Under the pieces are notes generated by a model. That model was not told the DNA's origin. It worked only from the letters and a program-made list of their open reading frames with translations, and ran no database searches. A program made the position numbers and the translations under genes. A stretch of DNA of 64,000 bases from an uncultured Clostridium sp. (GTDB lineage Bacteria > Bacillota_I > Bacilli_A > RF39 > UBA660). The stretch spans positions 6,162 to 70,161 of the forward strand of contig CABULC010000005.1 in the NCBI GenBank assembly GCA_902492325.1, given 5' to 3'. This document shows, piece after piece, positions 5,411-56,770 of the stretch (positions within the stretch are counted from its first letter, which is position 1; each line of letters opens with the position of its first letter).

Positions 5411-6664
5411 ATGAAAAATAGAAATGGTTTTACATTAGTTGAATTACTTGCAGTCATTGCAATTTTAGCAATACTTGTAATAATAGCGCTTCCTAATGTA
5501 ATAAATATGTACAATAAAGCGCAAAAAGAAACATTTTTAACAGAAGCAAAGAAAGTGTATAGTGAATCAGAAAAGAAGTTTATATCAAATTCTATAAGTA
5601 ACAAGCAAACAAAAATTATAAATTCAGAAGATAGTACTAAACTTGATATGACAGGAAAAAAACTTCAATATTGTGTTATTCTAAATAATAGTGGAAAAGT
5701 AACTAGTATGAAGGTATCTAATGGTAAATGGATAGCAAGTTTAGATAATAACAAAACTGTTGATAAATTAACTATAGATGATTTAGAAGAAGGAAATTTA
5801 GATAACTATGAATGTGGTAGTCAATCAGTAGATTCTAATTCTTATAATTGTACTTTTAATGGAAATATGGTACAAGGTGCCGAATTTATTGATGGTAAAT
5901 ATACCTATAGATACATGCAAAAAGTAGGATATAATGTTACTGAAAAAGGAATTATAACTTGGGTTAATATATCAACTGATGGCTGGGGAGTTAGTCTTAC
6001 TGATAAAAATAGTACTGAAATGGTAAGCGGTAAAACATGCTCAACTATAAATAATATACCAATAGTTTCAATGTCTTATATGTTTTTTGATAGTAATGCT
6101 TCTACAGTTGATGTAAGTGAATTCGATACCAAAAATGTAGTTGATATGCAAGGAATGTTTGATGGCAGTCAAGCAACAGTAATAAATGGCTTTGAAAATT
6201 TTGATACTAGTAATGTTGCAAATATGAGAGATATGTTTTATGATAGTAAAGTAGTAACTTTTGATTTAAGTAGTTTTGATACAAGTAACGTAACTAATAT
6301 GAGGTATATGTTTTATAATAATAAAGCTTCAAAATTAGAATTAGCAAATTTTAATACTAAAAATGTAACTGATATGTCTGGTATGTTTTATCAAAGCGAA
6401 GCTTCTATAATTGATATAAGTGGTTTTGATACAAGTAATGTTACTGATATGAGTTATATGTTTGAGAATACTAAAAATCTTAAAACAATATATGCAAGTG
6501 ATAAATTTATAACTAACAAAGTTACTAGTAGCACTAATATGTTTTCTAGTTCGATTAATCTAGTTGGTGGTGCAGGTACTATATATAATAGTTCTAAAAC
6601 TGATAAAACATTTGCAAGAATAGATGGTGGAACATCAAGCCCAGGATATTTTACTAAAAAGTAA
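5411..6664 (+). CDS. prepilin-type N-terminal (class III signal) protein with DUF285/BspA-family repeats
   Basis: MKNRNG^FTLVELLAVIAILAILVI: short basic leader ending in Gly, Phe+1, Glu+5, hydrophobic helix (type IV pilin/pseudopilin signature). C-terminal half has ~24-aa repeats F(D/N)TSNVT(D/N)M..MF typical of DUF285 (BspA-type LRR surface proteins). RBS AGGTGA upstream. Confidence 0.75.
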   Translation: MKNRNGFTLVELLAVIAILAILVIIALPNVINMYNKAQKETFLTEAKKVYSESEKKFISNSISNKQTKIINSEDSTKLDMTGKKLQYCVILNNSGKVTSMKVSNGKWIASLDNNKTVDKLTIDDLEEGNLDNYECGSQSVDSNSYNCTFNGNMVQGAEFIDGKYTYRYMQKVGYNVTEKGIITWVNISTDGWGVSLTDKNSTEMVSGKTCSTINNIPIVSMSYMFFDSNASTVDVSEFDTKNVVDMQGMFDGSQATVINGFENFDTSNVANMRDMFYDSKVVTFDLSSFDTSNVTNMRYMFYNNKASKLELANFNTKNVTDMSGMFYQSEASIIDISGFDTSNVTDMSYMFENTKNLKTIYASDKFITNKVTSSTNMFSSSINLVGGAGTIYNSSKTDKTFARIDGGTSSPGYFTKK

Positions 6665-8270: not shown

Positions 8271-8980
8271 TGATTAGTGTAGATAATATTACTAAAAAGT
8301 ATGGTAAAAAAATAGTATTTAGGAATATTAGTTTTGATATTACTGATAATGAAAAATTATTAATTATTGGTCCATCTGGTTGTGGTAAGACAACGCTTAT
8401 TAGATGTTTAAATGGATTTGAAAAAATAGATGGTGGTAAGATACTTTTAAATGGTGTTAATATTAAAGATATAGATGAAGTAACATTAAAGAGTAAAGTA
8501 GGAATGGTATTTCAAAACTTTAATTTATTTCCTCATTTAACAGTTGGAGAAAATATAGCACTTGCTCCTAGATTATTAAAACTTGGAAGTAAAAGTGAGA
8601 TTGACAAAAAAGTTAGAGAGTTATTAAATCAAGTTCATATACTTGATAAAATTGATGCTTATCCTAAGAGATTAAGTGGAGGAGAAAAACAAAGAGTTGC
8701 GATAGCAAGAGCACTTGCTACTAAACCTGAAGTTATATTATTTGATGAACCTACAAGTGCATTAGATCCAGCAGTAATAAATGACTTATTAGAACTTTTA
8801 GATGAATTATCCAAAACCACTACAATAGTTGTTGTATCCCATGAAATGGATTTAATTAAAAATTATGCTGATAAAGTATTATTCCTAAAAGATAAAAAAA
8901 TAATCGAATATGGAACTAAAAAAGATATATTAAATAGTGAAAATATTGATGTTAGAGAATTTTTAGGAAAGAGTAAGTGA
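8270..8980 (+). CDS. amino-acid ABC transporter ATP-binding protein
   Basis: Walker A GPSGCGKTT, signature LSGGEKQRVAIARAL, Walker B ILFDEPTSALD. Start overlaps the permease stop. Confidence 0.9.
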   Translation: MISVDNITKKYGKKIVFRNISFDITDNEKLLIIGPSGCGKTTLIRCLNGFEKIDGGKILLNGVNIKDIDEVTLKSKVGMVFQNFNLFPHLTVGENIALAPRLLKLGSKSEIDKKVRELLNQVHILDKIDAYPKRLSGGEKQRVAIARALATKPEVILFDEPTSALDPAVINDLLELLDELSKTTTIVVVSHEMDLIKNYADKVLFLKDKKIIEYGTKKDILNSENIDVREFLGKSK

Positions 8981-9058
8981 AAATTTTAAAATTCATTTAC
9001 TTTTTTTTATATAAAAGTTATAATTATTGTGAAGAATAAAGATGGAAAGGAGAGTTGT

Positions 9059-26670: not shown

Positions 26671-26728
26671 AGAGTAATCTTTACTTTTTTAATTGTAATA
26701 AAAAATTAGTATGATATAATTAAAATAG

Positions 26729-28507
26729 GTGAATGATGTGAAAAATAAAAATGGATTTTCTTTAATTGAATTGCTTGGAGTAATTGCGATAGTTGCAATT
26801 TTAACGTTAATGACTGTTCCTGCAGTTTTAGAAATATATAATAAGAATGTAATAAAGAGTATGCATATACAAGAAACTGAGATTAAAGATGCTGCTAATT
26901 TATTTGTAGAAGATTATTGTAAAACTTCAATTGATCAGACTAAGATTTGTCCTAAGAGTTATAGTACTGCAGTTAATAATAAGAAAACTGTTTGTCTTAA
27001 AGACCTTCAAAATAAATCAGATAAATATATTGATACGGTTAAATATAAAGGCTCTGATTGTAAATGATATGTTACATATTATTTAGATTCTGAAACTGGT
27101 GTCTATGGAAATGAAAAAACATATTTATTTTGTGGTAGGGGTGAAGACAATACTTATGCATATATGACTGATAGTAATTATGATCATAAAGAGTATTGTA
27201 AGTGTAGTGATGATGAGAAAATATGTGGTTCTTCTTATCCATTACTTTATAATGTTTTAAAAAATGAAGAAGAAAATGGCGGTTTAGTAAAAAAATATGA
27301 TGGTATTCATAATGATTCTTATAATGAAACTGGAAATAAAGATATATATTATTATAGAGCTGAAACAAATGATGATGTAAATAAAATATTAAATAAAAAT
27401 AATGTGCTATTTGGAAACTATTGTTGGCAAATAATAAGAACTACAGATATGGGTGGTGTTAGGTTATTATATAATGGTGAACCAAATGTTGTTGATGGAA
27501 AAAAACAATGTTATAATGATACAACAATTCGTTCAATTGGAAAATCAAAATTTAATGATGGGTATGATTCTATTGGCTATGTTGGTTATATGTATAATAA
27601 AAGTGAAACAGAAAAATACAAGTACACTTATAAAAAAATGATTGATGTTCAAGGGTCATCTTATACATTTAAATATTCTACTAGTTTTGATTATAAGAAT
27701 GGTGTATATACTTTAAAGGATGACATAAAAGAGATTAAGGCCGCTTATCCAGGCAATGTTAAAAATAGACATTATACTTGTTTAAGTGATTCTGAAACTT
27801 GTAAAAATGGAGAAATATATTATATTACTGGTTTTGAATATGATGGTGATGATTGGCATCTATACTATATAACATTGAAAAATGGAAATAGTGTTGAAGA
27901 TGCATTGAATTCTATGCTGTATAATGATGTTAATAAAGATGATTCATCAATAAAAAAATATATTGATAATTGGTTCGAACAAAAATTATTAAATTTTTCT
28001 GATTATTTAGAAGATAGTGTTTATTGTAATGATAGAACTATTATTGATTATAGTAATTGGGATTCTAAAAGTAATTGTACTTCTTTTGGTTCAGCTTACG
28101 AAACTTTAAAATTTAAAAATTATAATTTAAATAATGATCTTTATTGTACAAATATTACTGATAGATTTAGTGTTAATAATAATAAAGCTAAATTGAAATA
28201 TCCTATTGGATTAATTACTCTTCCTGAATTATATTTACTTAAAGACGGTTCCACATCTGCTCCTTATAGAGAAGGATTTTATACAATGTCTCCTTTAAGA
28301 TCCTTTAATTATAGTGAATTAGTTAATGGTTCGTTATTTGGTAACAATTATTTTCAGGCACCTAATAATTATTATTTAACTATAGGAAGTAGTGCGAGTA
28401 TAGAGACTTATGTACGTCCTGTTATAACACTTGCTTCTAATACTGAATATTTAAAAGGAGATGGAAGTTCTACTAATCCATATATTATTATTACTGATAA
28501 CAAATAA
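26729..28507 (+). pseudogene. prepilin-type N-terminal surface protein gene interrupted by an in-frame nonsense codon (TGA at 27065-27067)
   Basis: ORFs 26729-27067 and 27164-28507 are in the same frame. The first ~110 aa are ~75-80% identical to the N-terminus of the 53206 protein. At the stop position the paralogue has GGA (Gly, 53542-53544), so the change is GGA->TGA. Likely start is GTG 26738 (VKNKNG^FSLIELL) after AGGTGA. Confidence 0.7.
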
Positions 28508-28521
28508 TTTTAAAAAAGGGG

Positions 28522-28550
28522 TTTACATTTTAAAAATAATATTGTATAAT
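28522..28550 (+). promoter_or_regulatory. sigma-A type promoter of the rplJL operon
   Basis: -35 TTTACA (28522-28527), 17-bp spacer, extended -10 TGtTATAAT (28542-28550). Confidence 0.6.
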
Positions 28551-28556
28551 CTAATT

Positions 28557-28662
28557 CGTGAAGTGACCAAAGACAGTAAGTACAGAAGTAAATCTTACCG
28601 AGGAAACAATGAATAATGACGATTATTATGAGTTTCCTTGTCATGAGGAAACTTTTTAATTT
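28557..28662 (+). promoter_or_regulatory. ribosomal protein L10 leader (autoregulatory attenuator)
   Basis: Untranslated leader before rplJ. Terminator hairpin GAGTTTCCT-tgtcatg-AGGAAACT + TTTTT (28630-28660). Upstream GAGGAAAC (28600-28607) can alternatively pair with GTTTCCTT to form an anti-terminator. This matches the L10(L12)4-controlled attenuation leader of Firmicutes. Confidence 0.6.
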
Positions 28663-28677
28663 ATGAAAGGAGACTAT

Positions 28678-29182: not shown

Positions 29183-29554
29183 ATGGCAAAGATTGAAAAC
29201 AAAGAAATTATTGAAGCTTTAAAAGAAAAAACTATTCTTGAAGTTAAAGAATTACTAGATATGATGAAAGAAGAATTTGGTGTTGATCCAAGTGCTGTAG
29301 CTGTTGCTGCTGCTCCAGCTGCTGTTGAAGAAGACAATGCAGGAAGTGGAGTTAAGACTGTAGTATTAAAAGCTGCTGGTGCTCAAAAATTACAAGTTAT
29401 TAAAGTAATTAGAGAAGTTACTGGATTAGGTCTTAAAGAAGCTAAAGATATCGCTGATGCTGGTGGAAATGTTAAAGAAGGAATTCCTGCTAGTGAAGCT
29501 GAAGAATTAAAAGCTAAATTAGAAGAAGCTGGCGCTACTGTAGAATTAGCTTAA
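29183..29554 (+). CDS. rplL: 50S ribosomal protein L7/L12
   Basis: 123 aa. N-terminal dimerisation region, Ala/Pro hinge, C-terminal domain ([11 protein letters not shown]..., [15 protein letters not shown]). Confidence 0.95.
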
Positions 29555-29563
29555 TTTAACTAT

Positions 29564-29587
29564 GAGCCTTGTTAAAAGGCTTTTTTG
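29564..29587 (+). terminator. rho-independent terminator after rplL
   Basis: AGCCTT-gttaa-AAGGCT + TTTTTT. Confidence 0.6.
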
Positions 29588-29611
29588 CGTATATAAGAGA
29601 AGGAGAATTAT

Positions 29612-30199
29612 ATGAGTCATTATTTTGAAAATGATATGAACTTAAAGAGTGAAATTAGAGAATTAAGTTATAAATATGATTCTTCTTTTTTCACGTTTTA
29701 TAGCGATAATGGTGTGTTTAGTAAAAAGAATGTCGATTATGGAAGCAAATTATTATTAGAAACATATCTAAAAGAAAATATAACTAACGCAAATGTTCTT
29801 GATGTTGGTTGCGGTTATGGATTTATAGGAATAGTAATAAGTGTTCTTACAAATTCATATGTAGATATGGTTGATGTTAATAAAAGAGCTATCCATCTAA
29901 CAAATAGAAATATTAAACGTTATCCTAAGTTTAATGGAAGTGCATTTATAAGTGATGCATACTCAAATATTAAAAATAAATACAATGTAATTATTACTAA
30001 TCCGCCAATTAGAGTAGGTAAAACTAAATTATTAGAGATATTAGAAGGTGCTTTTGATCATTTAGATGAAGATGGGGTTTTGTACTTCGTTATTCGTAAA
30101 GATCAAGGAGCTTTATCAATAAAGAAGATTCTTGAAGAGCAAAGACAAGTAGAAATAATTAACAAAGATAAAGGATACTTTATATTTAAAGTAAAATAA
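29612..30199 (+). CDS. class I SAM-dependent methyltransferase (RsmC/YbxB-like rRNA methyltransferase)
   Basis: SAM motif I VLDVGCGYGFIG, motif IV ITNPPI. Same rplL-methyltransferase-rpoB position as B. subtilis ybxB. Confidence 0.75.
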   Translation: MSHYFENDMNLKSEIRELSYKYDSSFFTFYSDNGVFSKKNVDYGSKLLLETYLKENITNANVLDVGCGYGFIGIVISVLTNSYVDMVDVNKRAIHLTNRNIKRYPKFNGSAFISDAYSNIKNKYNVIITNPPIRVGKTKLLEILEGAFDHLDEDGVLYFVIRKDQGALSIKKILEEQRQVEIINKDKGYFIFKVK

Positions 30200-30233
30200 T
30201 ATAAATTTGCTTGACATTTTTTATAAAAAATAA

Positions 30234-30263
30234 TTGACTTATTGAAATAGAGTGTGGTAAAAT
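30234..30263 (+). promoter_or_regulatory. putative sigma-A promoter upstream of rpoB
   Basis: -35 TTGACT (30234-30239), 18-bp spacer, extended -10 TGgTAAAAT (30255-30263). A second TTGACA lies at 30211. Confidence 0.4.
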
Positions 30264-30334
30264 TTTATATTGCAGTACATTTGTTTTATTTTTAAAATTT
30301 GTGTTCTTTAAAAATTTAGGATTGGGGTGAAATA

Positions 30335-33300
30335 GTGGCATACAAAACAGTAAAATTTGGTGACCATAGAGAAAGAAGAAGTTTCTCAACAAAGCGTAGT
30401 ACGCTAGAACTTTCTAATTTATTAGAAATTCAGAAAAGTTCATTTGACTTATTTTTAAAGGAAGGAATCAAGGAAGTATTTGAGGATATTTTTCCTGTTG
30501 AAAGTTTTTCAGGTTCATTATCACTAGAATTTGGTGATTATTATTTTGATGAGCCTAAATATTCTGTTAAAGAAAGTCGTGAAAGAAAAGTTACATATTC
30601 TGCACCTTTAAAAGTAAAAGCTAGATTATTTATTAATGAAACTGGTGAAGTTAAGGAACAAGAAGTATTCTTAGGTGATATGCCTTTAATGACTGATACT
30701 GGTTCATTCATAATTAATGGAGCAGAGAGAGTTATCAACTCACAACTTGTTATGGGACCATCTTGTTATTACAAGAATGAAGTAGATAAGAGTGGTAGAA
30801 ATATCATTACAAGTGAAGTAAGACCTAATAAAGGTACTTGGCTTGAATATGAACTTGATGCTAGAGGAATCTTATATGTAAGAATAGATAGAACTCGTAA
30901 AGTTCCTGTTACTACATTATTAAGAGCTTTAGGACTTTCAAGTGACGATGAAATTTTAGAATTATTTGGTCAAGATGAATATTTAATTAATACTTTAGAA
31001 AAAGATTCTACTAAGAATACTGATGAAGCATTAATTGAAATATATGAAAAATTAAGACCAGGTGAACCAGCAACATTAGACTCAGCTAAAAACCAATTAA
31101 TCGTTAGATTCTTTGATAAATTTAGATATGATTTAGGTAAAGTTGGTAGATATAAATTCAATAAAAAACTTAATGTATTAGATAGACTTCTTAATGCTAA
31201 AATAGCTCAAGATATCGAAATTGATGGAGAAGTTATTGTTAAAAAAGGTACAGTAATTACTAAAGATATTCTTGAAACTATTAAACCATATTTTAAAAAT
31301 GGCTATGGTGTAAAAGAAGTAACTATTAATGAAGAATTAGATACATACAATAAGATCCAAGAAGTTCTTGTATATTCTAATGATGAAGATGAAAAAGTTA
31401 TTAAGATTATAGGTAATGATCAAACTATTGATACTAAGAGATTAACTATATCTGATGTGTATGCATCACTATCATATTATATTTGTTTATTATATGGTAT
31501 TGGTAAGTATGATGAAATAGATCACTTAGGAAATAGACGTGTAAGACAAGTAGGAGAATTAATTCAAAATCAATTTAGAATTGGTATTGCACGTATGGAA
31601 AGACAAATTAGAGATAAGATGTCTACTCAAGAGATTGATGCTGTTACTCCAAAATCATTAATTAATATTAGACCAGTTACTGCTTCATTAAAAGAATTCT
31701 TTGGTAGCAGTCAACTTTCTAAATTCATGGATCAAATAAACCCATTATCAGAATTAAATGATAAACGTAGACTTAGTGCTTTAGGTCCAGGTGGTTTATC
31801 AAGAGATAGAGCTGGTATGGAAGTTCGTGATGTTAACCCATCTCACTATGGTAGAATTTGTCCTATCGAGACTCCAGAAGGTCAAAACATTGGACTTATT
31901 ACATCACTTGCTAGTTATGCTAGAATTAATGAATATGGATTTATAATGACTCCATATAGAAAAGTTGTTGATAATAAAATAACTGATGAAATAGTATATA
32001 TGACTGCTGATGAAGAAGAAGATTATTACATTAGTCAAGCTACAATTGATGTAGATGATAATGGTTATATTGCTTCTGAAACAGTTCCAGTTAGATATAA
32101 TAAAGATAATATGATCGTTCCTCGTGAGAAGGTAGATTATATAGATGTTTCACCATCACAAATCGTATCTGTTACAACAAGCATGATTCCATTTATGGAA
32201 CATGATGATGCTAACCGTACACTAATGGGTGCAAACATGCAAAGACAAGCTGTACCACTAATGATTACAGAAGCTCCTATTGTAGGAACTGGAGTAGAAG
32301 CTGCTATAGCTCGTGATTCTGGTTGCTCAGTAGTATGTGACTTAGATGGTGTAGTTGAATACGTTGATGCTAAAAAGATCATAGTTAAAGGTTTAGAAGA
32401 AAAACATACTTATGAACTAGTTAGTTATCAAAGAAGTAATAATGAAACTTGTTATAATCAAAGACCAATTGTTAAGAAAGGTGAACAAGTTCATAAAGGA
32501 GAAATAATTGCTGATGGACCTTCTACTGATAAAGGAGAAATAGGTTTAGGTAAAAACTTAGTTGTAGCATTCATGACTTATAATGGTTATAACTATGAAG
32601 ATGCAGTTATTCTAAATGAAAGAATAGTTCGTGATGATGTTCTTACATCAGTTCACATTGAAATGAAAGAAATAGAGTGCCGTGATACTAAACTTGGACC
32701 AGAAGAATTCACAAGAGATATTCCAAATATTAGTGAAGATGCTCGTAAGAATTTAGATGAAAATGGTATAGTAAGAATTGGTACTGAAATAAAAGAAAAT
32801 GATATTCTTGTTGGTAAAGTTACTCCTAAGGGAATGCAAGAATTATCAAGTGAAGAAAAATTATTACATGCAATCTTCGGTGAAAAGACTCGTGAAGTTC
32901 GTGATACATCACTTCGTGTTAGCCACGGATGTTCAGGAATTGTACACGACGTTCAAATATTCACTAAAGAAAACTCTGATGAACTTCCTGCTGGAGTTTC
33001 AAAAGTAGTTCGTGTATATATAGTTAAGAAGAGAAAGATTCAAGTTGGAGATAAGATGGCTGGACGTCACGGAAATAAAGGTGTTTGTTCATTAATTCTT
33101 CCTTCAGAAGATATGCCATATTTACCAGATGGTACTCCAGTAGATGTAATCTTAAACCCATTAGGTGTTCCTTCTCGTATGAACTTAGGACAAATCTTAG
33201 AGTTACACTTAGGTATGGCTGGTAAAAAGTTAGGTGTTCATTATGCTACACCAATATTCGATAGTGCTACTGAAAAAGATATTCAAGAAGAAGTAGCTGA

Positions 33301-43191: not shown

Positions 43192-44919
43192 TTAGTCTTT
43201 TATAAGCGGTTTAAAATTTTTAATTGCTTCAATAAGTTTTTGGTTTTGTATGACAAAGTGTATTACGGGATTTGAGCTTTTTGAGATGATTGTGTAATTA
43301 TTTTCAAGTGATACTATAGTTATATTTTTAAATATTTTTTCGGCTAAATAATTTAGTTTGTAATTTTTTACGCTTTTTGCATATTCCTTTGTTTGATTTA
43401 GATGCTCTATATATTCGTTATAATTGTAATTTATTTTTTTATTAAAAAAAATGTTACTTAATAAAAGTGATGGTGTATCATTTTTAAATTCGTTTTCTTT
43501 TATATTATAAATATAATCATATATTTTATTATTCTTCCTAATGCTATTTATATGTTTTAGTTCATCATTCTTGTATTTTATTATTTTATTAATGTCTTCA
43601 TTTGTTAGTTTATTTCTTTTTAAAATTTTAATTAATAATTCATCTTTTATAGTGAATATTGGTAATGATGAAAGATATCTTTTTCTATTGCATATTATTT
43701 TTTCATCTTTTTTTAAAAATAATTCGTATTCTTTTGCATTATTTTCTCTATAAATTTTCATAAGTGGTTTTGCTTTTTTAAGAAGTAAATTACTTTTTTC
43801 TCTATAATATTTAACCTCATTTTTGTTTGTTGTTAGATAATACATTCCCTTATCATGGTAACCTTTAATGCATTCGCCAGTTAATGCTGACGTTCCTGAT
43901 ACATAATCAAGGTGATTGTAAATACTATTTTTTATATCTTTTAAATAGTAGGGTGATACTTGTCCAGTCATATAAATCGGTATCCAACTTTCAAGACCTA
44001 GCATCATTTCGTTAAATGGTCTATCTACATTATGAATAATATTTATATGATGTCCTTTTTTTAAACACATAGCTATTGCTAACATCCATTTTTTTCCAAA
44101 TTCTGTATCTTTGGCCATGTCTTCCATTGGCATGTAACTGCACATGAAAATATCTTCTTTTGATTTAGCTAAAACTGTTGCTTTAAAAAAATTAAGTTCT
44201 CCTTCTTTCATTTCTTCTATTCCATAATAATGTTTTGTTTTTGCTTTATAAAAAGGTATACTTGGAACTTTTAATTTATCAAATTTTATTACTTTTATAT
44301 AATCTTCTAAATCAAATGTATCGAGATTATATAAAAAATCTGATACATTATTTTTAGTTGGGGTTGTTTCACTTGTAAGCCAAGTAAGTAATGTATTATA
44401 TAAATTTTCAGATGTTAATTTATTTTTTTCATTGTCAATGATTGTTGCTATACGATTTATATTATCTACATTATTACATTTGCTAAATATATAAGAACAT
44501 ATTTTGTTTGAAAATTCTACTGGATTTGAAGGCTTAGCTTTACCATTTTTTATTCTTGAAATATGTGATGCATCAAATACAATATATTTTGCCATTTCGT
44601 TTGTATTTATATTAAGTAGTGTTATTAAAGTATTTAGTTTATTACTAAAAGCTGTATAATCAAAGTCATCACTTGATAGTGTTGAATTAAAATCATTTGA
44701 TATTTTATCAAGTGTATATTGAGTTTTATTATTTTCTTGTGCAATATTAAAAAGTGCAGCAGTTAACTCGGTTAGTTGTTTGCTGTTTTTTAGTGGAATT
44801 CTTTCGCCATTTCTATATCTACTGATAACTGTTTGTGATAATCCAGAAACTTTAGATAGTTGTTTTGGAGTGCAATTAAGTTCTTGTAAATATATATTTA
44901 ATAGGTTTTTAAAATTCAT
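43192..44919 (-). CDS. XRE-family transcriptional regulator with two HTH modules and a large C-terminal domain
   Basis: 575 aa. N-terminal HTH_XRE (LSKVSGLSQTVISRYRNGERIP) and second HTH (MAKYIVFDASHISRIKNGKAKP). ~400-aa C-terminal domain of unknown function. Divergent from the 45059 operon. Confidence 0.65.
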   Translation of the reverse strand: MNFKNLLNIYLQELNCTPKQLSKVSGLSQTVISRYRNGERIPLKNSKQLTELTAALFNIAQENNKTQYTLDKISNDFNSTLSSDDFDYTAFSNKLNTLITLLNINTNEMAKYIVFDASHISRIKNGKAKPSNPVEFSNKICSYIFSKCNNVDNINRIATIIDNEKNKLTSENLYNTLLTWLTSETTPTKNNVSDFLYNLDTFDLEDYIKVIKFDKLKVPSIPFYKAKTKHYYGIEEMKEGELNFFKATVLAKSKEDIFMCSYMPMEDMAKDTEFGKKWMLAIAMCLKKGHHINIIHNVDRPFNEMMLGLESWIPIYMTGQVSPYYLKDIKNSIYNHLDYVSGTSALTGECIKGYHDKGMYYLTTNKNEVKYYREKSNLLLKKAKPLMKIYRENNAKEYELFLKKDEKIICNRKRYLSSLPIFTIKDELLIKILKRNKLTNEDINKIIKYKNDELKHINSIRKNNKIYDYIYNIKENEFKNDTPSLLLSNIFFNKKINYNYNEYIEHLNQTKEYAKSVKNYKLNYLAEKIFKNITIVSLENNYTIISKSSNPVIHFVIQNQKLIEAIKNFKPLIKD

Positions 44920-45058
44920 AGTATATTACTCCTTTGATAGTATTATACTATGAATTTCGAGTGTAGTAAATTTATTACCATTGAAAACAATGATTTTGCT
45001 GGTAACTTAGTTGTACTTTAAATAACTTCAAATTATAATATATATATAAAGGAGAAGA

Positions 45059-46138
45059 ATGTTTATGAAGAATGTTAAATTAAATTCTATGCAAAAAAGA
45101 ATAATTATAATTTCTATAGCTGCTATTACTATATTAGTATGTGTTATTTTATTTAGTAATAATGGTAAAGGAATATTTAATAATCCTGATAGTAATGTTA
45201 AAATTGTAAAATCAGAAGTTAGTAAAATAGAACTTGAGGATTATAATACCAGTGAATTTACCATAAAAAAGCCAAAAGGTTGGAAAGTTGATACACTTGG
45301 AGATTATATTCATTATACAATTAAGGTATATGACCCAAATAATTCATCTTATCAATTTTTCTTTAATATGAAAACTGAAGGGTATAATAAGTCAGAGGCT
45401 GCTAAAAAATGGCAACAAAAGTATTATCCAAATAATATATTTTCAAAAACTAGTGTAATTGCTACTAAAGATACTGAAGGATTTTATAAGATATTTAATG
45501 ATTTAGGAACTTTAAATAATACTAGTACATTTACGTTTCCAACATTAACTGATTTTACTGTAACGGATAATTTAGGTAAAGGTAGTTTAGGTGGAGATAT
45601 GCTAAGAGCAACATTTAAAGATGCTAATGGTAAAGAGGGAGAAGGAATATTTACTGCCTATGTATATGATGTTGGACCTTATTATGTTTATGAAAATATA
45701 GTTTCGGGTAGAAAAATAGATATACAACACTTAAATGTATATGATGCTATCTTTATTACTGCACCAAAAGATGAACTTATAGATTGGCAAGATACATTGA
45801 ATACTATTTGTTCTTCACTAGAATTCACAGATACTTTTATAAATGGATTTAATCAACAACAAGACGCAGTCATGAAAAACTTTCAACAAATTAGAGCAAT
45901 AGGTAATCAAATAAGTGATGGAATAATGGATTCTTGGAATAAAAGAAATAAATCATTTGATATTATGAGTCAAAAACAAAGTGATGCAACACTTGGATAT
46001 GAAAGAGTATATGATACTGAAACTAATGAAATATATAAAGCATATAATGGATTTACAGATGACTATGATGGGGAAAGATATAAATCTATAACTGATGATA
46101 TGTATTCACAAAAAACTAGTGGATATATAGAAAAGTAG
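45059..46138 (+). CDS. secreted/membrane-anchored hypothetical protein
   Basis: 359 aa, N-terminal TM/signal, no known motif. Confidence 0.45.
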   Translation: MFMKNVKLNSMQKRIIIISIAAITILVCVILFSNNGKGIFNNPDSNVKIVKSEVSKIELEDYNTSEFTIKKPKGWKVDTLGDYIHYTIKVYDPNNSSYQFFFNMKTEGYNKSEAAKKWQQKYYPNNIFSKTSVIATKDTEGFYKIFNDLGTLNNTSTFTFPTLTDFTVTDNLGKGSLGGDMLRATFKDANGKEGEGIFTAYVYDVGPYYVYENIVSGRKIDIQHLNVYDAIFITAPKDELIDWQDTLNTICSSLEFTDTFINGFNQQQDAVMKNFQQIRAIGNQISDGIMDSWNKRNKSFDIMSQKQSDATLGYERVYDTETNEIYKAYNGFTDDYDGERYKSITDDMYSQKTSGYIEK

Positions 46139-46145
46139 GTATGGT

Positions 46146-47069
46146 ATGAAGAATAAAAAAACAATTTATGTTATTATATTATCTATTGTATTAGTAGGTA
46201 TTATTTCTATAATTATTATTAAAAGTAAAAATCAAAAATTAAATGATCATACTCCTCCAGAAGCAAAATCAATATTTGATGCACTTAAGAAAAAATATCC
46301 GGATAAAGAATATCAAAGACTAAAGGGTGGAGAAATATTAAAGGAAGATACTTCATTTAGTAAATACTCTTTTATTGCCAATAATTCTATATATATTTTT
46401 AATCCACAAAAACTAGATAATGGAGAGTTTGAATATAAAAAAGTATATAATATAGCTAATAGTATTAAGGTTATGAATATTACTCCGAATTCAGGTGCTG
46501 ATATAAGATTTTATGATTATAATGATACTATATATACTTTACATGATGATAATACAAATAATAAAATTAAAGATAGTTATGATATGTATTTAAATGCAAA
46601 TTATAATCTTAGTGATTATCTTAAATGGGATTATTCAACAGAGTTTCTTGGCAAAAAAATTGATTATGATTTTATGTCTGAATATGCTTATGTAAAAGAT
46701 AATGTTTTATATAGTAAAAACTATGGCAATGAAAAATATCCAACTATTGAAAAAATAAGTGGTAATTATGAGGGAGAAAAAGTAATTAGAATCTACAATG
46801 AGAGAATTGTGAAAACTGATAAAGGTTTTTATGAACTGATGAGTTATTTTGATAATAATTTAAATAAAAAAGTTATTACTACTGTTAGAATTAATATGCT
46901 AACAAAATATTATGATGAGATTTTAACGTTTACATATAAATATGTAATATTAAAGGATTGTACACTTATACCTATAAATGATGTTATGGAGAATAGGGTA
47001 AGAGAATATTCATATGATTATTATATAAGTGGATTTAATTCTATGAGTGAAGTTAGATATGAAGAATAA
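46146..47069 (+). CDS. secreted/membrane-anchored hypothetical protein
   Basis: 307 aa, N-terminal TM/signal, Tyr/Asn-rich. Confidence 0.45.
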   Translation: MKNKKTIYVIILSIVLVGIISIIIIKSKNQKLNDHTPPEAKSIFDALKKKYPDKEYQRLKGGEILKEDTSFSKYSFIANNSIYIFNPQKLDNGEFEYKKVYNIANSIKVMNITPNSGADIRFYDYNDTIYTLHDDNTNNKIKDSYDMYLNANYNLSDYLKWDYSTEFLGKKIDYDFMSEYAYVKDNVLYSKNYGNEKYPTIEKISGNYEGEKVIRIYNERIVKTDKGFYELMSYFDNNLNKKVITTVRINMLTKYYDEILTFTYKYVILKDCTLIPINDVMENRVREYSYDYYISGFNSMSEVRYEE

Positions 47070-47113
47070 AAAGTTCATTATCTAACTTTTTTTATAGATG
47101 TGATATAATTTAA

Positions 47114-47569
47114 TTGAGGTGTCAGATGATTATAAGAGTAGAAAATGTAGAAGACTGTAAAACTTGTGATGAATTTTTAACACTATTAATTCATGATGAA
47201 AAACAATATGATGAAACAATAGATGAGAATTTTGTTGTTAAAGATTATTTTGTTAATGTAATAAAAAATAAAGATAATATATTACTTTTATATAAAGAAG
47301 ATAATAATAGTATTGGTTATATGTTTGCTAAAAGAGTAGACGAAGGATATTTATTGGATGGATTATATGTTCTTGAAAACTTTAGAAATAAAGGAATTGC
47401 TAGAAAACTTTTAAATGAAATTATTAAAGAAATTAATTTAAATGGTGAATATAAAATATCTATAAATGTTTTAAAAGAAAATGCTGTTGCTTATAATTTA
47501 TATAAAAGCTTAGGATTTATTATTCAAAAAGAAGATGAACTTAAATATTATATGATTTATAAAAAATAG
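47114..47569 (+). CDS. GNAT family N-acetyltransferase
   Basis: Motif A region (LENFRNKGIARKLLNEI). Confidence 0.65.
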   Translation: MRCQMIIRVENVEDCKTCDEFLTLLIHDEKQYDETIDENFVVKDYFVNVIKNKDNILLLYKEDNNSIGYMFAKRVDEGYLLDGLYVLENFRNKGIARKLLNEIIKEINLNGEYKISINVLKENAVAYNLYKSLGFIIQKEDELKYYMIYKK

Positions 47570-47635
47570 TTTTACTTTGCCTAAACATAGATTTTATTTT
47601 TACATAAAATATCTATGAAAAGGAGAAGTGTTAAA

Positions 47636-47953
47636 ATGAATAATACAATGGGTATGTATCAAGGTTATAGTGTTGAAGGTAGTGCTGAATTAAAAGTTAC
47701 TCCTGAAAAAATGATGAATGAAAATGTTTCTTCTTGTAATACTATGCCAGGTGTAGTTTGTCAACCAATATATGAATGTCCACAAGAAAGATGTGTACAT
47801 AGACAAATTATTCATGAAGTTCCACATGTTTGTCCAGTAAATACAAGAATTATTAATCATCATATTTATAGACATACTTATAGTCCTTGTTATACATGTA
47901 CTGAAGAAAATGAAATTTGTAATGAGAATGTAGGTTGCCCTATAAAGTTCTAA
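47636..47953 (+). CDS. Cys/His-rich small protein, spore-coat CotD-like
   Basis: ~105 aa with repeated (V/I)xHx/VPHVxP/HH patterns and 10 Cys, resembling the CotD spore-coat family (from memory, unverified). RBS before ATG 47636. Confidence 0.4.
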   Translation: MNNTMGMYQGYSVEGSAELKVTPEKMMNENVSSCNTMPGVVCQPIYECPQERCVHRQIIHEVPHVCPVNTRIINHHIYRHTYSPCYTCTEENEICNENVGCPIKF

Positions 47954-48052
47954 TAAAAGTTTATAAAAGAGTTATTTAATATAACTTTTTTATTTTGTAA
48001 AAAGAAGTGTTTTTGAAATTTATGTCTAACTATAATAATAGGAGGCTATAAT

Positions 48053-48603
48053 ATGAAAGAAAATCAAATGTACTTAATAAACAAAATGTTTAATAGTGAA
48101 ACAATAAGAACTGTGTGGAATAGGGAGAAACAAAAGTATTATATTAGTGTTGTTGATATAGTTGCTGTTTTGGTAGAAAGCAAAGATCCTAGACATTATT
48201 GGAATGTTCTAAAATCAAGATTAAAACATGAAGGAAATCAGTCGGTCACAAATTGTGACCAACTGAAATTAAAATCATCAGATGGCAAATATTATAAAAC
48301 TGATGTAGTTGATATCGAAGGTATGTTTAGAATAATTGAATCAATTCCAAGTAAAAATGCAGAACCCATCAAATTATGGTTAGCAAGACTTGGAAGAGAA
48401 AGAATAGATGAAGTATTTGACCCATCAATAACTGTGCAAAGAGCAATAGATACATATAGAGTTAAAGGATATGATTAGGTGGTCATGCCTCTAAAGTTGC
48501 GCGTGAGGATATAGAAAAGAATTTAGGACAAAGTATTTTAAGTGTTGAAAATACTTTAGAATATGAATATACTCAGGATAAAGAGATGATTCAAAATAAA
48601 TAA
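48053..48603 (+). pseudogene. Bro-N/DinD-like (phage-related DNA-binding) gene remnant with internal deletion
   Basis: ORF 48053-48478 encodes a Bro-N/ORF6N-like N-terminal domain ending ...PSKNAEPIKLWLARLGRERIDEV...VKGYD. A -1 frame downstream (48478-48603) encodes GGHASKVAREDIEKNLGQSILSVEN, which resembles the C-terminal tail of full-length (~270 aa) family members. The middle of the gene appears to be missing. Confidence 0.4.
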
Positions 48604-48641
48604 TATAGTGTTATAAAGCTATCATCTATGCTAAAATAATA

Positions 48642-49313
48642 TTGGTGAAGATAATGATCAAAAAGTATGAAAAAATATTAAAATTAGATGATACAGTAGC
48701 TAAAAATTTATTTGATAAAGTAGAATACCCATGGGAAGTATTACCTGAAATTAAAAATTATATATTAGAAATAATTCCTACTTTAGGAAGTGAATATATA
48801 AAATTAAAAGATGATGTTTATGTTCATAAAAATGTTCAAGTTGATGAGAGTGCTCATATAGATGGACCTTCTGTTATTGGTGAAAATAGTGTAATAAGAC
48901 ATTCTGCATATATTAGAGGTTCTGTTATAATTGGTAAGAATTGTGTTATAGGGAATTCTACTGAAATTAAAAATTCTATTCTTTTTGATGGAGTTGCTTG
49001 TCCTCATTTTAATTATGTTGGTGACTCTATTTTAGGAAGTAAAGCTCATACCGGAGCTGGTGTTATTCTTTCTAATGTTAAAAGCGATAATACTAATGTA
49101 ATTATTAGAGATAAAGATAATTCTATCGATACTAATCTTAGAAAAATGGGTTCTATAATTGGAAATAATGTTGAGATAGGATGTAATAGTGTTATATGTC
49201 CTGGTACAATAATAAATTCTAATGTAAATATTTATCCACTTACTATGGTAAGAGGTGTAATACCTGAAAATGTTATAGTAAAATCTATGGATAATATAAT
49301 AAATAAAAAATAA
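48642..49313 (+). CDS. hexapeptide-repeat (left-handed beta-helix) transferase-like protein
   Basis: Tandem [LIV]-G-x-x-x-x hexapeptides across residues ~60-200. Confidence 0.6.
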   Translation: MVKIMIKKYEKILKLDDTVAKNLFDKVEYPWEVLPEIKNYILEIIPTLGSEYIKLKDDVYVHKNVQVDESAHIDGPSVIGENSVIRHSAYIRGSVIIGKNCVIGNSTEIKNSILFDGVACPHFNYVGDSILGSKAHTGAGVILSNVKSDNTNVIIRDKDNSIDTNLRKMGSIIGNNVEIGCNSVICPGTIINSNVNIYPLTMVRGVIPENVIVKSMDNIINKK

Positions 49314-49342
49314 TTATGATATAATGAATTAGGTGAATTATT

Positions 49343-50584
49343 ATGATTTTAAGTATATGTTCTAATCCTGAAGTGCTAGAAGTTATGAGAATTGTTAATA
49401 TGGCAATATTGATAATTAAAATAACTGTTCCAATATTATTAATAGTTATTGGTATGGTAACGTTAATGAATACAATTAAAGTTGGTAATGAAGATTTACT
49501 AGCTAAAGCTAAAAAACAACTTATTAATAATTGTATTGCAGCAATGATTATATTTTTAATACCAACTCTTGTTAGTGTAATAGTTAGAGTAAGTGATACT
49601 AATAATCAATACAGAGCTTGTTTAGATGCTGATGTAACAATGATAAATGATGCATATATATCAAGAGCTGAGAATTTAGTATCTAAAGCTGAAGAAGCAA
49701 AAACATACAATGATTATTATGCTGCTAAAAAAGCAGTAGATGGATTGAAAAATGAAAGTGATAGAGCTAGTTTTAGTTCAAGATTAAATGCTGTATATGA
49801 AATAATTAAGGCAGATATTGAAAAAAACAATAATAATGAAGATGAAAATAGTGGTGGCGTAGGTTCTAGTGATGATGGAAGCGGAAGTACTACGGGTAGT
49901 AATTTAAATGTTAGTGCTGGTTCATCTGAATATACTGGAGTAGGAAGTATTACTAAATATACTTTGTTTGTTCCAAAAAATGCCAAAGAAAATATGCCAT
50001 TGATAGTTATGTTACCTGCTAGTAACGGGGACTATAGTGCTGCTGTTAATGAATTTAAAAATATGAAACTTGAAAATGATTTAGCATTTATGATGGTTGT
50101 TTATCCTAGTGGTAACTATTCTTCACAAGCATATAGCGATATTAAAACTACAGCTGATGAAGTTGTTAATAAATATAAAATAAACAAAAATAAAATTGGT
50201 GCTTCTGGATTTAGTTCTAGTGGGACATATGTGTATCATTTAGTTGTGAATAATCAAGGTTATTTTCATAGTATGGTTCCTATAAGTTCAGGAGTAAGTT
50301 CATCGGATAAAATTTTAAAAGATAACTTAGATTATTTAAAAACATTAAATATTAAAGGTTATGGTGAAAATGGTGGAGCATATGATTCTAATGGTAAAAA
50401 ATGTGCTGGATGGACTAATTGGTCACCATCTAATTCAATGACAAGTGCATTTAATGCTTTAGGCAAATCAAATAATTTTGTTAATCTTGGAAAGATATGC
50501 CATAGTAATGTTAGAAGTTATGTTTTTAATTTAGATGAAAATAATAATAATCGTTCTGATTATATAGAATGGTTTACTAAATAG
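49343..50584 (+). CDS. membrane-anchored modular protein: shared N-terminal 2-TM/coiled-coil module plus alpha/beta-hydrolase(esterase)-like C-terminal domain
   Basis: 413 aa. First ~185 aa are nearly identical to the 58300 protein. Gly/Ser/Asp-rich linker. C-terminal ...LIVMLPASNG...IGASGFSSSG... suggests an esterase fold (weak). Confidence 0.5.
   Translation: MILSICSNPEVLEVMRIVNMAILIIKITVPILLIVIGMVTLMNTIKVGNEDLLAKAKKQLINNCIAAMIIFLIPTLVSVIVRVSDTNNQYRACLDADVTMINDAYISRAENLVSKAEEAKTYNDYYAAKKAVDGLKNESDRASFSSRLNAVYEIIKADIEKNNNNEDENSGGVGSSDDGSGSTTGSNLNVSAGSSEYTGVGSITKYTLFVPKNAKENMPLIVMLPASNGDYSAAVNEFKNMKLENDLAFMMVVYPSGNYSSQAYSDIKTTADEVVNKYKINKNKIGASGFSSSGTYVYHLVVNNQGYFHSMVPISSGVSSSDKILKDNLDYLKTLNIKGYGENGGAYDSNGKKCAGWTNWSPSNSMTSAFNALGKSNNFVNLGKICHSNVRSYVFNLDENNNNRSDYIEWFTK
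49360..49891 (+). repeat. dispersed repeat copy 1 (~530 bp, ~99% identical to 58318-58850)
   Basis: Direct comparison of the two 5' gene segments shows only ~8 mismatches over ~530 bp. Confidence 0.85.
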
Positions 50585-53214: not shown

Positions 53215-55113
53215 ATGAAAAATAAAAATGGATTTTCTTTAATTGAATTGCTTGGAGTAATTGCGATAGTTGCAATTCTTACTTTAATGGTTGTACCAGC
53301 TGCTATTAAAACCTATAATGAAAATGTTATTAAAGCAATGCATGTACAAGAAAATGAAATGAAGGAAGCGGCAAATTTATTTGTAGAAGACTATTGTAAG
53401 AATTCAATTGATCAAACTAAGATTTGTCCTAAGAGTTATAGTACTGCAGTTAATAATAAGAAAACAGTATGTCTTCAAGATCTTCAAAAGAGTAGTGATA
53501 AATATATAGATGGTATTAAATATAAGGGTTCTGATTGTAAAGGATATGTTACTTATTATTTAGATTCTGAAACTGGTGTGTATGGTAATGAAAAAGCATA
53601 TTTATTTTGTGGATTAAATGAAGATGGTTCTTTTGATTATGCTACAAGTAAAGATTATGATTATAAAGAATATTGTAGTTGTAGTGATGATGAAATATGT
53701 AAGGAGAAAACTGAAAGAGTTTATTGTAAATTTGATGGTGACTTGAAACAAGGCGCTGAGTATGTCAATGGTCAATATACTTATAGATATAAACAAGCTG
53801 GTGTTAGAAGTGATGATGATCTTGCATGGAATAATTTTTCAAAAGATGGATGGGGAGTACAACTTACAGATAAAACTAGTACTGAACCAGTAACTAGTAA
53901 AGTATGTACATATATAAATGATAAACCAGTTATCGCTATGTCTAATATGTATAGTGATAGTAAGGCTACAAGTATAGATTTAAGTAGTTTAAATACAGCA
54001 AAAGTTGATAATATGAGTTATATGTTTGCATCTAGTGCTGCAACTGATTTAGATGTTAGTTTCTTTAATACAAGTAATGTAACTCTTATACATAGTATGT
54101 TTAATGGAAGTAAAACAACTACTTTAGATGTAAGCGGATTTGATACAAGTAAAGTAACAAATATGGGTAATATGTTTAGAGGTGTTTTAGTTGAAACCTT
54201 AGATTTAAATAATTTTAATACTTCTAATGTTATATATATGGATAACATGTTCTTTGGAAGTAAAATGATTTCATTAGATCTTTCAAGTTTCAACACTTCT
54301 AATGTAACGACTATGTATGGAATGTTTTGGGGTTCATCAGCGACTGATTTAAATCTTAAGAGTTTTGATACAAGCAAGGTTAAATCAATGTCATTTATGT
54401 TTAGAGGTGCTTTAGCTGAAAATTTAGATTTGAATAATTTTAATACAAGTAATGTCGCTGATATGGGGGGAATGTTTGAAGGTGCTAAAGCTAAAACATT
54501 GGATTTGAGTAATTTTAATACTTCAAAAGTTAAAAATATGTATTTAATGTTTGATGGCGCTGAAGCAGAGAATTTAGATTTAACAAGTTTTGATACAAGT
54601 AATGTAACTGATATGAGTTCTATGTTTAGATTTTCAAAAGCTAAAAAAATAGATGTTTCAAGTTTTGATACAAGTAATGTAACTAGTATGTTTCTTACAT
54701 TTGCTCAATGTTCTGCGACTGAGGTTGATGTTAGCAAGTTCAATACTAGTAATGTTAAAAATATGGGAAGTATGTTTCATTCAAGCAATATAATCAATTT
54801 GGATGTAAGCAACTTTGATACAAGTAATGTTACTAATATGGCGTCAATGTTCTATTATAGTAAGTCAAAAACTTTAGATGTTAGTAAATTTAATACTGAA
54901 AAGGTTACTGATATGAGCGCGATGTTTCAAGGAAGCAATGCAGAATTATTAGATTTAAGTAATTTTAATATTGATAATGTAACTAATATGAATATAATGT
55001 TTAGTGCAGCTAAAGCAACTACTGGATATGCAAAAGATGATCCAACTGCAGCTAAGTTTAATGACAGTAGTGTTACTAAAATACCAAGTACACTTAAATT
55101 TACTGTTAAATAA
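53215..55113 (+). CDS. prepilin-type N-terminal protein with pilin-like Cys-containing domain and DUF285/BspA-family repeat array
   Basis: MKNKNG^FSLIELLGVIAIVAILTL (class III signal). ~130-aa N-terminal domain shared with the 26729 pseudogene. Then ~15 tandem ~24-aa F(D/N)TS(N/K)V..M..MF repeats. AGGTGA before ATG 53215; the track start is GTG 53206. Confidence 0.8.
   Translation: MKNKNGFSLIELLGVIAIVAILTLMVVPAAIKTYNENVIKAMHVQENEMKEAANLFVEDYCKNSIDQTKICPKSYSTAVNNKKTVCLQDLQKSSDKYIDGIKYKGSDCKGYVTYYLDSETGVYGNEKAYLFCGLNEDGSFDYATSKDYDYKEYCSCSDDEICKEKTERVYCKFDGDLKQGAEYVNGQYTYRYKQAGVRSDDDLAWNNFSKDGWGVQLTDKTSTEPVTSKVCTYINDKPVIAMSNMYSDSKATSIDLSSLNTAKVDNMSYMFASSAATDLDVSFFNTSNVTLIHSMFNGSKTTTLDVSGFDTSKVTNMGNMFRGVLVETLDLNNFNTSNVIYMDNMFFGSKMISLDLSSFNTSNVTTMYGMFWGSSATDLNLKSFDTSKVKSMSFMFRGALAENLDLNNFNTSNVADMGGMFEGAKAKTLDLSNFNTSKVKNMYLMFDGAEAENLDLTSFDTSNVTDMSSMFRFSKAKKIDVSSFDTSNVTSMFLTFAQCSATEVDVSKFNTSNVKNMGSMFHSSNIINLDVSNFDTSNVTNMASMFYYSKSKTLDVSKFNTEKVTDMSAMFQGSNAELLDLSNFNIDNVTNMNIMFSAAKATTGYAKDDPTAAKFNDSSVTKIPSTLKFTVK
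53221..53613 (+). repeat. dispersed repeat (~390 bp, ~85% identical to 26743-27135): pilin-like 5' module
   Basis: Nucleotide-level comparison of the 5' ends of the two prepilin-type genes. Confidence 0.75.
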
Positions 55114-55505: not shown

Positions 55506-56363
55506 ATGAAAATATTACTTAGTTGGAAGTTTTGGGTAATTTTATATTTAGTTTCTGCGGTTATATTTGCTCAAGCTTTTAAAAAATCAAATCGTAATAT
55601 GAAGAGTGCTGGAGCTCTTACAATATTACTTGAAATATATACTGCATTTTTTGCTATATTTTTTATTCCATTTTTTGATTTTGTTTGGCCAACTGATTCT
55701 AGTGTATATTTAACATTAGTTGCTGTTGTTAGTATCTATGCTATAACAGATAGACTTAATATTGAAGCTAGATATGGACTTGATCCTTCAGTATTTAGTA
55801 TGCTTAAACAATTATCTACAGTATTCTTAATAATATTAGGATTTATATTCTTAAAAGAACCAGTTGTTCTTAAAAAGATTATTGGTTCATTAATAATTAT
55901 ATTTGCGAATGTTTTACTTGCGTTTGATAAAGGAAAAATCAAGTTTAATAAATATTTTATTATGTCATTTATATCTAATTTCTTATTCGCAGTTGCGATG
56001 CTTATAAATGTTAATATTTCTAATTATTTTAATTTAGCTTTTTATACAATTCTTACTGTTTTTACGCCATCAATATTAATATTTATATTTGGTAAACATA
56101 GTTTAAAAGAATTAAAAAAAGAATTTAATTCTTATGATAAAAAGAGTTTCTTACTTGCTGCGTTTACTTGGTGTTTAATGTTAATTGCGTCAGTTCGTGC
56201 ATATCAACTTGGTAATGTTACTTTAATTGCACCGCTTTTAACATTGACATCAATATTAAATACTATGTATGAATACTTTGTATGTAAAAATAAAAGTAAG
56301 TTTATTCAAAAAGTTATAGCATCTATACTTATTATAATAGGTGTTGTTATAATAAAGATGTGA
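55506..56363 (+). CDS. DMT/EamA-like polytopic membrane transporter
   Basis: 285 aa, ~10 hydrophobic helices in two halves. Confidence 0.45.
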   Translation: MKILLSWKFWVILYLVSAVIFAQAFKKSNRNMKSAGALTILLEIYTAFFAIFFIPFFDFVWPTDSSVYLTLVAVVSIYAITDRLNIEARYGLDPSVFSMLKQLSTVFLIILGFIFLKEPVVLKKIIGSLIIIFANVLLAFDKGKIKFNKYFIMSFISNFLFAVAMLINVNISNYFNLAFYTILTVFTPSILIFIFGKHSLKELKKEFNSYDKKSFLLAAFTWCLMLIASVRAYQLGNVTLIAPLLTLTSILNTMYEYFVCKNKSKFIQKVIASILIIIGVVIIKM

Positions 56364-56371
56364 GGTGAAAT

Positions 56372-56770
56372 ATGAAAGCATTAACTATAAAAGAACCTTG
56401 GGCATCTTTAATAATTGAAGAATATAAAAAATATGAGTTTCGTAGTTGGAAAACAAAATATAGAGGTAAAATACTTATACATGCTGGACTTAGCGTTGAA
56501 AAAGATATGTTAAAAAGATTTAAAGACTATGATATCAATATTAATCCTGGATATATTATTGGTGAAGCTACTATTACTGATTGTATACTTGTTGATGAAG
56601 AATTTAATTGTGAACTTAGAAATATTGATCCAGTTGTGTATGGAAGAAGTAATCATACTGAAACATATGCTTGGAAGCTTGAAAATGTTATTAAATATGA
56701 AAAACCAATACCATATAAAGGTAAACTTGGTTTATGGAATTATTGTGAAGATAATCTTGAAAAAAAATAA
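56372..56770 (+). CDS. ASCH-domain protein (YqfB-like)
   Basis: IKEPWASLIIEEYKKYEFRSWKTKYRGKILIHAG matches the ASCH core. Confidence 0.6.
   Translation: MKALTIKEPWASLIIEEYKKYEFRSWKTKYRGKILIHAGLSVEKDMLKRFKDYDININPGYIIGEATITDCILVDEEFNCELRNIDPVVYGRSNHTETYAWKLENVIKYEKPIPYKGKLGLWNYCEDNLEKK

Follow-up and report, generated by a model that had tools for sequence, protein, structure and literature searches.

The window analysed here is a stretch of 64,000 nucleotides with a G+C content of 26.7%, from an uncultured low-G+C member of the human-gut Bacilli related to "Clostridium sp. CAG:524". It contains three prepilin-type genes, one of which is interrupted by an in-frame TGA. The features at this gene, and the two related genes, are as follows.

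26693-26720, forward strand: promoter-like sequence TTGTAA-16 nt-TATAAT with a TG before the -10 element (TGnTATAAT), 10 of 12 positions matching; consensus match only.
26727-26732, forward strand: ribosome-binding site AGGTGA, 5 nt before GTG 26738; the paralogue has the same motif before ATG 53215.
26738-27064, forward strand: 5' part of the interrupted gene, 109 codons, with the class III (prepilin) signal, the hydrophobic alpha1 and the start of the pilin module (PF07963, TIGR02532).
27065-27067, forward strand: premature TGA in place of a conserved GGA (Gly110), from alignment to orthologues and paralogues.
27068-28507, forward strand: remaining frame, 479 codons and TAA without a further stop, covering what remains of the pilin module (to about 27235), then the C-terminal module (about 420 aa).
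28549-28668: ribosomal protein L10 leader RF00557, immediately following the interrupted gene (Rfam, 51.4 bits, E 9e-7).
53215-55113, forward strand (start listed as 53206 or 53215): intact paralogue with the same pilin module, GGA at 53542-53544, then DUF285/PARCEL repeats (Pfam).
5411-6664, forward strand: third prepilin-type modular gene, N_methyl plus DUF285, 417 aa, with a more divergent pilin module (Pfam).

The interrupted frame starts at a GTG and reaches the TGA after 109 codons. Beyond it the same frame stays open up to the TAA at 28505-28507, with no stop within 27068-28504. An earlier note on this DNA had described two ORFs, 26729-27067 and 27164-28507, as lying in one frame and split only by this TGA, and this is borne out (all coordinates are 2 mod 3). 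Two ORFs are listed for one gene because ATG 27164 is the first in-frame start past the stop. The start given in that note needs to be replaced. It is almost certainly GTG 26738 rather than GTG 26729, given the ribosome-binding site, the choice of the gene callers and the leader MKNKNG-FSLIELL shared with the orthologues; GTG 26729 itself falls within the ribosome-binding site. With this start the readthrough product has 589 aa, the exact length of the intact syntenic orthologues, and reads ...GSDCK-X-YVTYYLDSETGVYGNEK across codon 110, X being the TGA. An open frame of 479 codons in DNA of 26.7% G+C, together with full-length homology to intact proteins, lies far beyond chance. The region upstream of the gene is identical in strains with intact alleles. 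Downstream, the next transcription unit begins with the L10 leader and its terminator-like hairpin (28630-28654).

The encoded N-terminus has the features of a class III signal, MKNKNG followed by FSLIELLGVIAIVAILTL, with a basic leader ending in Gly, a hydrophobic stretch and Glu at +5. The N_methyl model PF07963 reaches 28.1 bits against a cut-off of 21.2, and TIGR02532 reaches 21.4 bits against 16.3. Solved pilins match the alpha1 region, and only its N-terminus by sequence. AF2 models place alpha1 at residues 9 to 60/62, followed by four strands up to about residue 166, where pLDDT is only 35-55. Gly110 is the start of the second of these four predicted strands, again at low confidence. 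On the other hand, residues 167-589 of the orthologue P0001 are modelled as a compact domain with a pLDDT of about 90. The C-terminal module is thus predicted to fold independently, grafted onto the pilin module, as in modular pilins, and the same pilin module is also found joined to DUF285 and PT-HINT modules. We infer that the gene product is a modular type IV pilin-like surface protein.

The C-terminal module has no match in Pfam or NCBIfam and no PDB relative by sequence search, and the best Foldseek hit against the PDB has an E of 0.41. Its family is large, with at least 1489 matches at E <=1e-3 among the candidates scored. Members of this family (the module spans 27236-28504 in the window) are also fused to VWA, DUF6273 and other modules, and share a conserved C-terminal motif, VRPxI(T/S)L...GDGSxxNPY. 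As for the pilus itself, no prepilin peptidase or pilus machinery gene was found among the genes of the 64 kb window, and none of the three prepilin-type genes lies beside such machinery. Elsewhere in the window, a run of genes with weak or no Pfam matches (43195-50584) includes a minus-strand HTH_3 protein (575 aa), a Bro-N protein (48053-48475) and several family-less ORFs, and is possibly a mobile-element remnant.

Modular type IV pilins are known from Streptococcus sanguinis, where PilB carries a vWA module and PilC a lectin module (Raynaud et al. 2021, PMC8179133; Shahin et al. 2023, PMC9934059). The proteins described here resemble PilB and PilC in having a class III signal and a small pilin module to which a large, unrelated C-terminal module is attached, and in coming from a monoderm. 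They also share the use of one carrier module for varied functional modules, in this case the 420-aa module, DUF285/PARCEL and PT-HINT. Unlike in S. sanguinis, the C-terminal module of the interrupted gene has neither a Pfam family nor a solved relative, the genes are scattered beside housekeeping genes instead of forming a pil operon, and the pilus machinery is absent from the window. Furthermore, the pilin fold is here predicted at low confidence, and this copy is interrupted by a stop.

The earlier note had taken the gene at 53215 as the intact paralogue. It does carry GGA at the aligned codon, in a near-identical context (ggttctgattgtaaaGGAtatgtt versus ggctctgattgtaaaTGAtatgtt), but it is paralogous only over the N-terminal pilin module of about 165 aa, and its DUF285/PARCEL repeat domain is unrelated to the C-terminal part of the interrupted gene. 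The true intact counterparts are the 589-aa orthologues of other strains. A search of 5.8 billion proteins for full-length relatives of the readthrough product returned P0001 (589 aa, 85% identity, 100% coverage), followed by P0002 and P0003, with 591 and 592 aa and 71-73% identity. In addition, the 90% cluster that holds the 447-aa downstream fragment has many members of 587-589 aa, among them P0122 (35 contigs), P0123 (34) and P0124 (12). Summing over the listed intact members of this cluster gives about 102 intact contigs. In a scan of GTDB genomes the closest of the matches listed had 72% amino-acid identity, the representative of the species itself not being among them.

The genomic context is the same for P0001, P0003 and P0123: 5-FTHF cyclo-ligase (minus strand), cdaA, ybbR, the gene, rplJ, rplL, a methyltransferase and rpoB. 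The strains bearing P0123 (L007-L012) and the window belong to one species, with 98.5% identity over 11 kb. Within this species the slot between ybbR (cdaR) and the rplJ leader, with flanks 97-99% identical, differs in its cassette by strain (compared over window 26671-28548, L093 1736-3996 and L097 1733-4599). Some strains have one 589-aa pilin-module gene, others have two genes, N_methyl plus PT-HINT (394 aa) and N_methyl plus DUF285 (331 or 532 aa). The slot looks like a variable surface-protein locus beside core genes. In the first gene of the two-gene version (L093 1736-2920, also in L094-L097), the prepilin signal and pilin module are joined to a pretoxin-HINT domain (PF07591, E 8e-19). 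In polymorphic toxins a PT-HINT domain is usually found ahead of the toxin tip; by analogy, the fusion protein may be a pilin-carried, self-cleaving module.

We then consider the TGA itself, which is genuine, of a single base, derived and rare. It is identical in the three loci read (L001-L003), which come from different samples and assemblers (scaffold_137, k119_ and k141_ contigs) and show no other difference within the gene. The 109-aa upstream product and the exact 447-aa downstream product are each on record in 6 contigs (NCBI, ENA), one of them an NCBI record. Outside the gene, L003 has one SNP relative to the window. L002 matches the window exactly as far as about 29,500, a stretch that takes in the TGA gene and rplJ/rplL, and beyond that it is 10-25% divergent in the methyltransferase and the start of rpoB (L002 5394-6881, window about 29,550-31,100). 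This divergence is either a recombination breakpoint with a different backbone or a chimeric metagenome contig. Gly, encoded by GGA, stands at the site in every orthologue and paralogue examined, within the orthologue motif KGSDCK-G-YVTYY. When JGI metagenomes were scanned with the variable base set to K (G or T), all 7 of 7 matches had G. Compared across strains, as the earlier note proposed, about 102 contigs are intact and 6 carry TGA, and an in-frame stop is present where the syntenic orthologues have a sense codon.

The interrupted gene differs from the intact P0123 allele at 66 positions, all between nt 14 and 513 of the gene. The remainder (nt 514-1770) is identical, so that the last 1257 nt (27252-28507) match at 100%. 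A multiple alignment and a 25-mer map resolve the 5' 500 nt into a patchwork.

26676-26751: best match to the P0123 type.
26739-26800, forward strand: identical to the window's own paralogue at 53215, differing from the P0123 allele.
26793-26923: best match to the P0123 type.
26900-27122, forward strand: apart from base 27065, no difference from the DUF285-pilin gene P0136/P0007 found in other strains of the species.
27109-27141: best match to an L104-type paralogue.
27252 onward: best match to the P0123 type.

P0136/P0007 occupies the ybbR-rplJ slot of other strains of the species, between flanks that are 97-99% identical, and the intact P0136-type sequence is carried by L093-L096. In the 26900-27122 segment every 25-mer has an exact match elsewhere unless it spans 27065. 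The TGA is thus a single de novo G to T transversion, because only the 25-mers with this base are unmatched in intact circulating copies. This agrees with the earlier claim that one GGA to TGA change interrupts the gene. We also considered import of the stop from a paralogue by gene conversion, which is rejected, as every candidate donor has GGA. The change appears to be very recent, since no other defect has accumulated: frameshifts, extra stops and raised dN/dS were not seen downstream, where the last 1257 nt are unchanged. Such an undecayed frame is what a very recent mutation would leave, and it fits a pseudogene and a leaky gene alike.

The Cys-rich carrier module of about 165 aa is common to many genes, at 70-90% identity. 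Comparing window 26738-27250 with 53215-53720 and the loci L007, L093 and L104, the 25-mer map shows it exchanged among paralogues and alleles in tracts of 30-220 nt. Such short tracts indicate gene conversion.

In terms of decoding, the genetic code of the window is standard, as the earlier note had held. The ORFs of at least 150 codons end in TAA (33), TAG (13) or TGA (3). Twelve large genes, including rpoB and rpoC, have no in-frame TGA, with 44 TGG, 213 GGA and 246 GGT codons. Two plausible genes ending in TGA (at 8980 and 56363) have an ordinary junction with the next gene. An alternative code (4 or 25) is rejected by these codon counts and gene ends. The window encodes a single tRNA, tRNA-Arg(CCT). 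Both TGA ends have a back-up in-frame stop 2-3 codons further on (8978-8989, KSK-stop-KF-stop; 56361-56375, IKM-stop-GEI-stop), two cases being too few to tell selection against UGA leakiness. At the interrupting stop, Rfam at E <=1 gives no SECIS or other RNA family, the sole match being the L10 leader, and the RNA structure of the 121 nt around and after the stop is no better than that of shuffled sequences (z = -0.39). No dedicated cis signal for recoding was therefore seen: the sequence flanking the stop equals that of the intact copies, and the base after the TGA is T. Selenocysteine is rejected, with no SECIS present and Gly instead of Cys in the homologues. In addition, the stop is not conserved across diverged lineages, being present in six near-identical contigs only.

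Of the explanations left by the earlier note, a recent nonsense allele fits all of this evidence. A sequencing or assembly error, the true base being G, would need only a one-base difference in AT-rich metagenomic DNA, but the identical TGA in at least 3 samples, different assemblers and 6 contigs makes it extremely improbable, and this option is set aside. Decoding of UGA as Gly (code 25), Trp (code 4) or selenocysteine is given hardly any credence either. The aligned residue is indeed the Gly that code 25 assigns to UGA, and the AT-rich genome is related to Mollicutes-like Bacilli, but twelve large conserved genes use 44 TGG and 459 GGA/GGT codons without one in-frame TGA, TGA ends genes at normal junctions, and the stop has none of the signals expected of selenocysteine. 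Code 25 of Gracilibacteria/Absconditabacteria also has TGA aligned with the Gly codons of homologues; unlike that genome-wide assignment, the case here occurs once in 64 kb, with TGA otherwise a terminator. A split gene would yield a truncated 109-aa pilin and a 447-aa protein re-initiated at ATG 27164. The gene callers do annotate two CDSs, and this ATG is the first in-frame start available, but it lies inside the conserved pilin module, with no Shine-Dalgarno-like motif 5-12 nt away (the nearest, GGGGTGA, ends about 17 nt upstream). Furthermore, the 447-aa product has no signal peptide, while its homologues are always fused to export or anchor modules, and all relatives are single proteins of 587-592 aa. 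A functional split gene is very unlikely, since the ATG is without a nearby Shine-Dalgarno motif and its product without an export signal.

A leaky stop, tolerated or even useful, is a more serious alternative, which we nevertheless consider unlikely. UGA would be misread by a near-cognate tRNA, probably tRNA-Trp, to give a little 589-aa pilin, which would be a low-expression state of a minor pilin or adhesin, and conversion could restore the gene. The fully intact downstream frame and the presence of the allele in several samples are consistent with this, and many bacterial in-frame stops have been argued to be read through (PMC7918605). The N-terminal module is demonstrably swapped among paralogues, and the paralogue at 53215 matches the 12 bases before the codon and the 10 after it. 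Repair by conversion is mechanically plausible, if speculative, because of this mosaicism and the 12 and 10 shared flanking bases. But the stop is unconserved beyond the near-identical contigs, the other contigs (about 102) having GGA, and its flanks, equal to those of the intact copies, hold no allele-specific signal. The fourth base, T, also argues against leakiness, as it makes a strong UGA termination context in E. coli. With 0 substitutions among the TGA contigs since the mutation, there is no selection signal in dN/dS, and a Trp where a strand begins with a conserved Gly may not be tolerated. As a dedicated recoding or readthrough site, the option raised in the earlier note, the TGA finds no support: it is limited to near-identical strains, lacks a SECIS or significant structure, and stands in a genome with the standard code.

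Polymorphic in-frame stops in bacterial genes have been studied before, readthrough being inferred from conservation and low dN/dS, and such stops have been argued to be able to persist (Belinky et al. 2021, PMC7918605). The present case resembles these in being a single nonsense substitution in an otherwise intact gene, segregating and possibly reversible. It differs in that the stop occurs only in near-identical strains with no later substitutions, and hence no such signal. In the case of Bacillus subtilis, low-efficiency decoding of UGA as Trp was reportedly described by Lovett et al. in 1991. The host here is likewise of the Bacilli class with a UGA stop, which offers a generic route to traces of full-length protein, but there is no sign that UGA decoding is exploited here.

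Our preferred reading, with a probability of roughly 0.8, is that a modular type IV pilin-like gene, at a variable locus prone to recombination, has very recently acquired a GGA to TGA nonsense mutation. One G to T transversion in this strain lineage turned the conserved Gly110 codon into a stop. Translation from GTG 26738 would then normally end after 109 residues, before three of the four predicted beta-strands, leaving a fragment made up of the signal peptide, alpha1 and no more than the first predicted strand, so that the pilin module would be incomplete. The adhesin-like C-terminal module would be absent, or present in traces through near-cognate misreading of UGA, in which case the full-length protein would carry Trp at position 110. 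Re-initiation at ATG 27164 would have no ribosome-binding site to rely on, and its product would have no export signal. The mutation is thus probably inactivating, judging from the sequence, and residual leaky readthrough at a low level is possible. Against this reading, UGA is known as the stop most prone to leak in Bacilli, and translation may therefore yield some full-length protein. The intact downstream frame is equally predicted by continued use through readthrough, and the TGA allele is found in several samples, including L002 with its differing downstream backbone. The allele has therefore persisted and spread to some extent. Still, it is confined to a rare strain, and is an ordinary nonsense allele rather than a new decoding trick. 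The main claim of the earlier note, a prepilin-type gene interrupted by one GGA to TGA change, is supported, corrected for the start coordinate and for the identity of the intact counterpart.

In Neisseria, pilE/pilS vary the pilin by gene conversion, and non-functional variants arise as by-products or off states. The interrupted gene is likewise a mosaic pilin gene built from paralogue segments. Unlike in Neisseria, the exchanged part is the conserved N-terminal carrier module and not the hypervariable C-terminal region, the donors would be expressed full-length genes, and no dedicated recombination signal was identified. The stop here is also a point mutation and was not imported. A rather speculative extension, which we regard as quite doubtful, is that the TGA is one state of a population-level on/low switch for variable pilin-carried surface modules. 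The slot and the scattered paralogues would swap segments of the pilin module by gene conversion. With a stop in the shared module, the adhesin-like module would be silenced, or only attenuated where UGA leaks, and any paralogue could supply the repair. If true, uncultured gut Bacilli would have a system that varies their modular pilins by recombination.

Taking the nonsense mutation as the working explanation, the stop itself matters little, being a strain-level nonsense polymorphism in an accessory surface-protein gene. For annotation, the two CDSs called here are one interrupted 589-aa gene, and the case illustrates how a real nonsense allele can be told apart from an assembly error or a change of code. 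More interesting than the stop is the setting, a gut Bacilli lineage with many modular pilin-like genes, in which a single Cys-rich carrier module moves between paralogues and is attached to C-terminal modules of very different kinds. Among the latter is a module from a large, confidently predicted family that is without structural or functional annotation.
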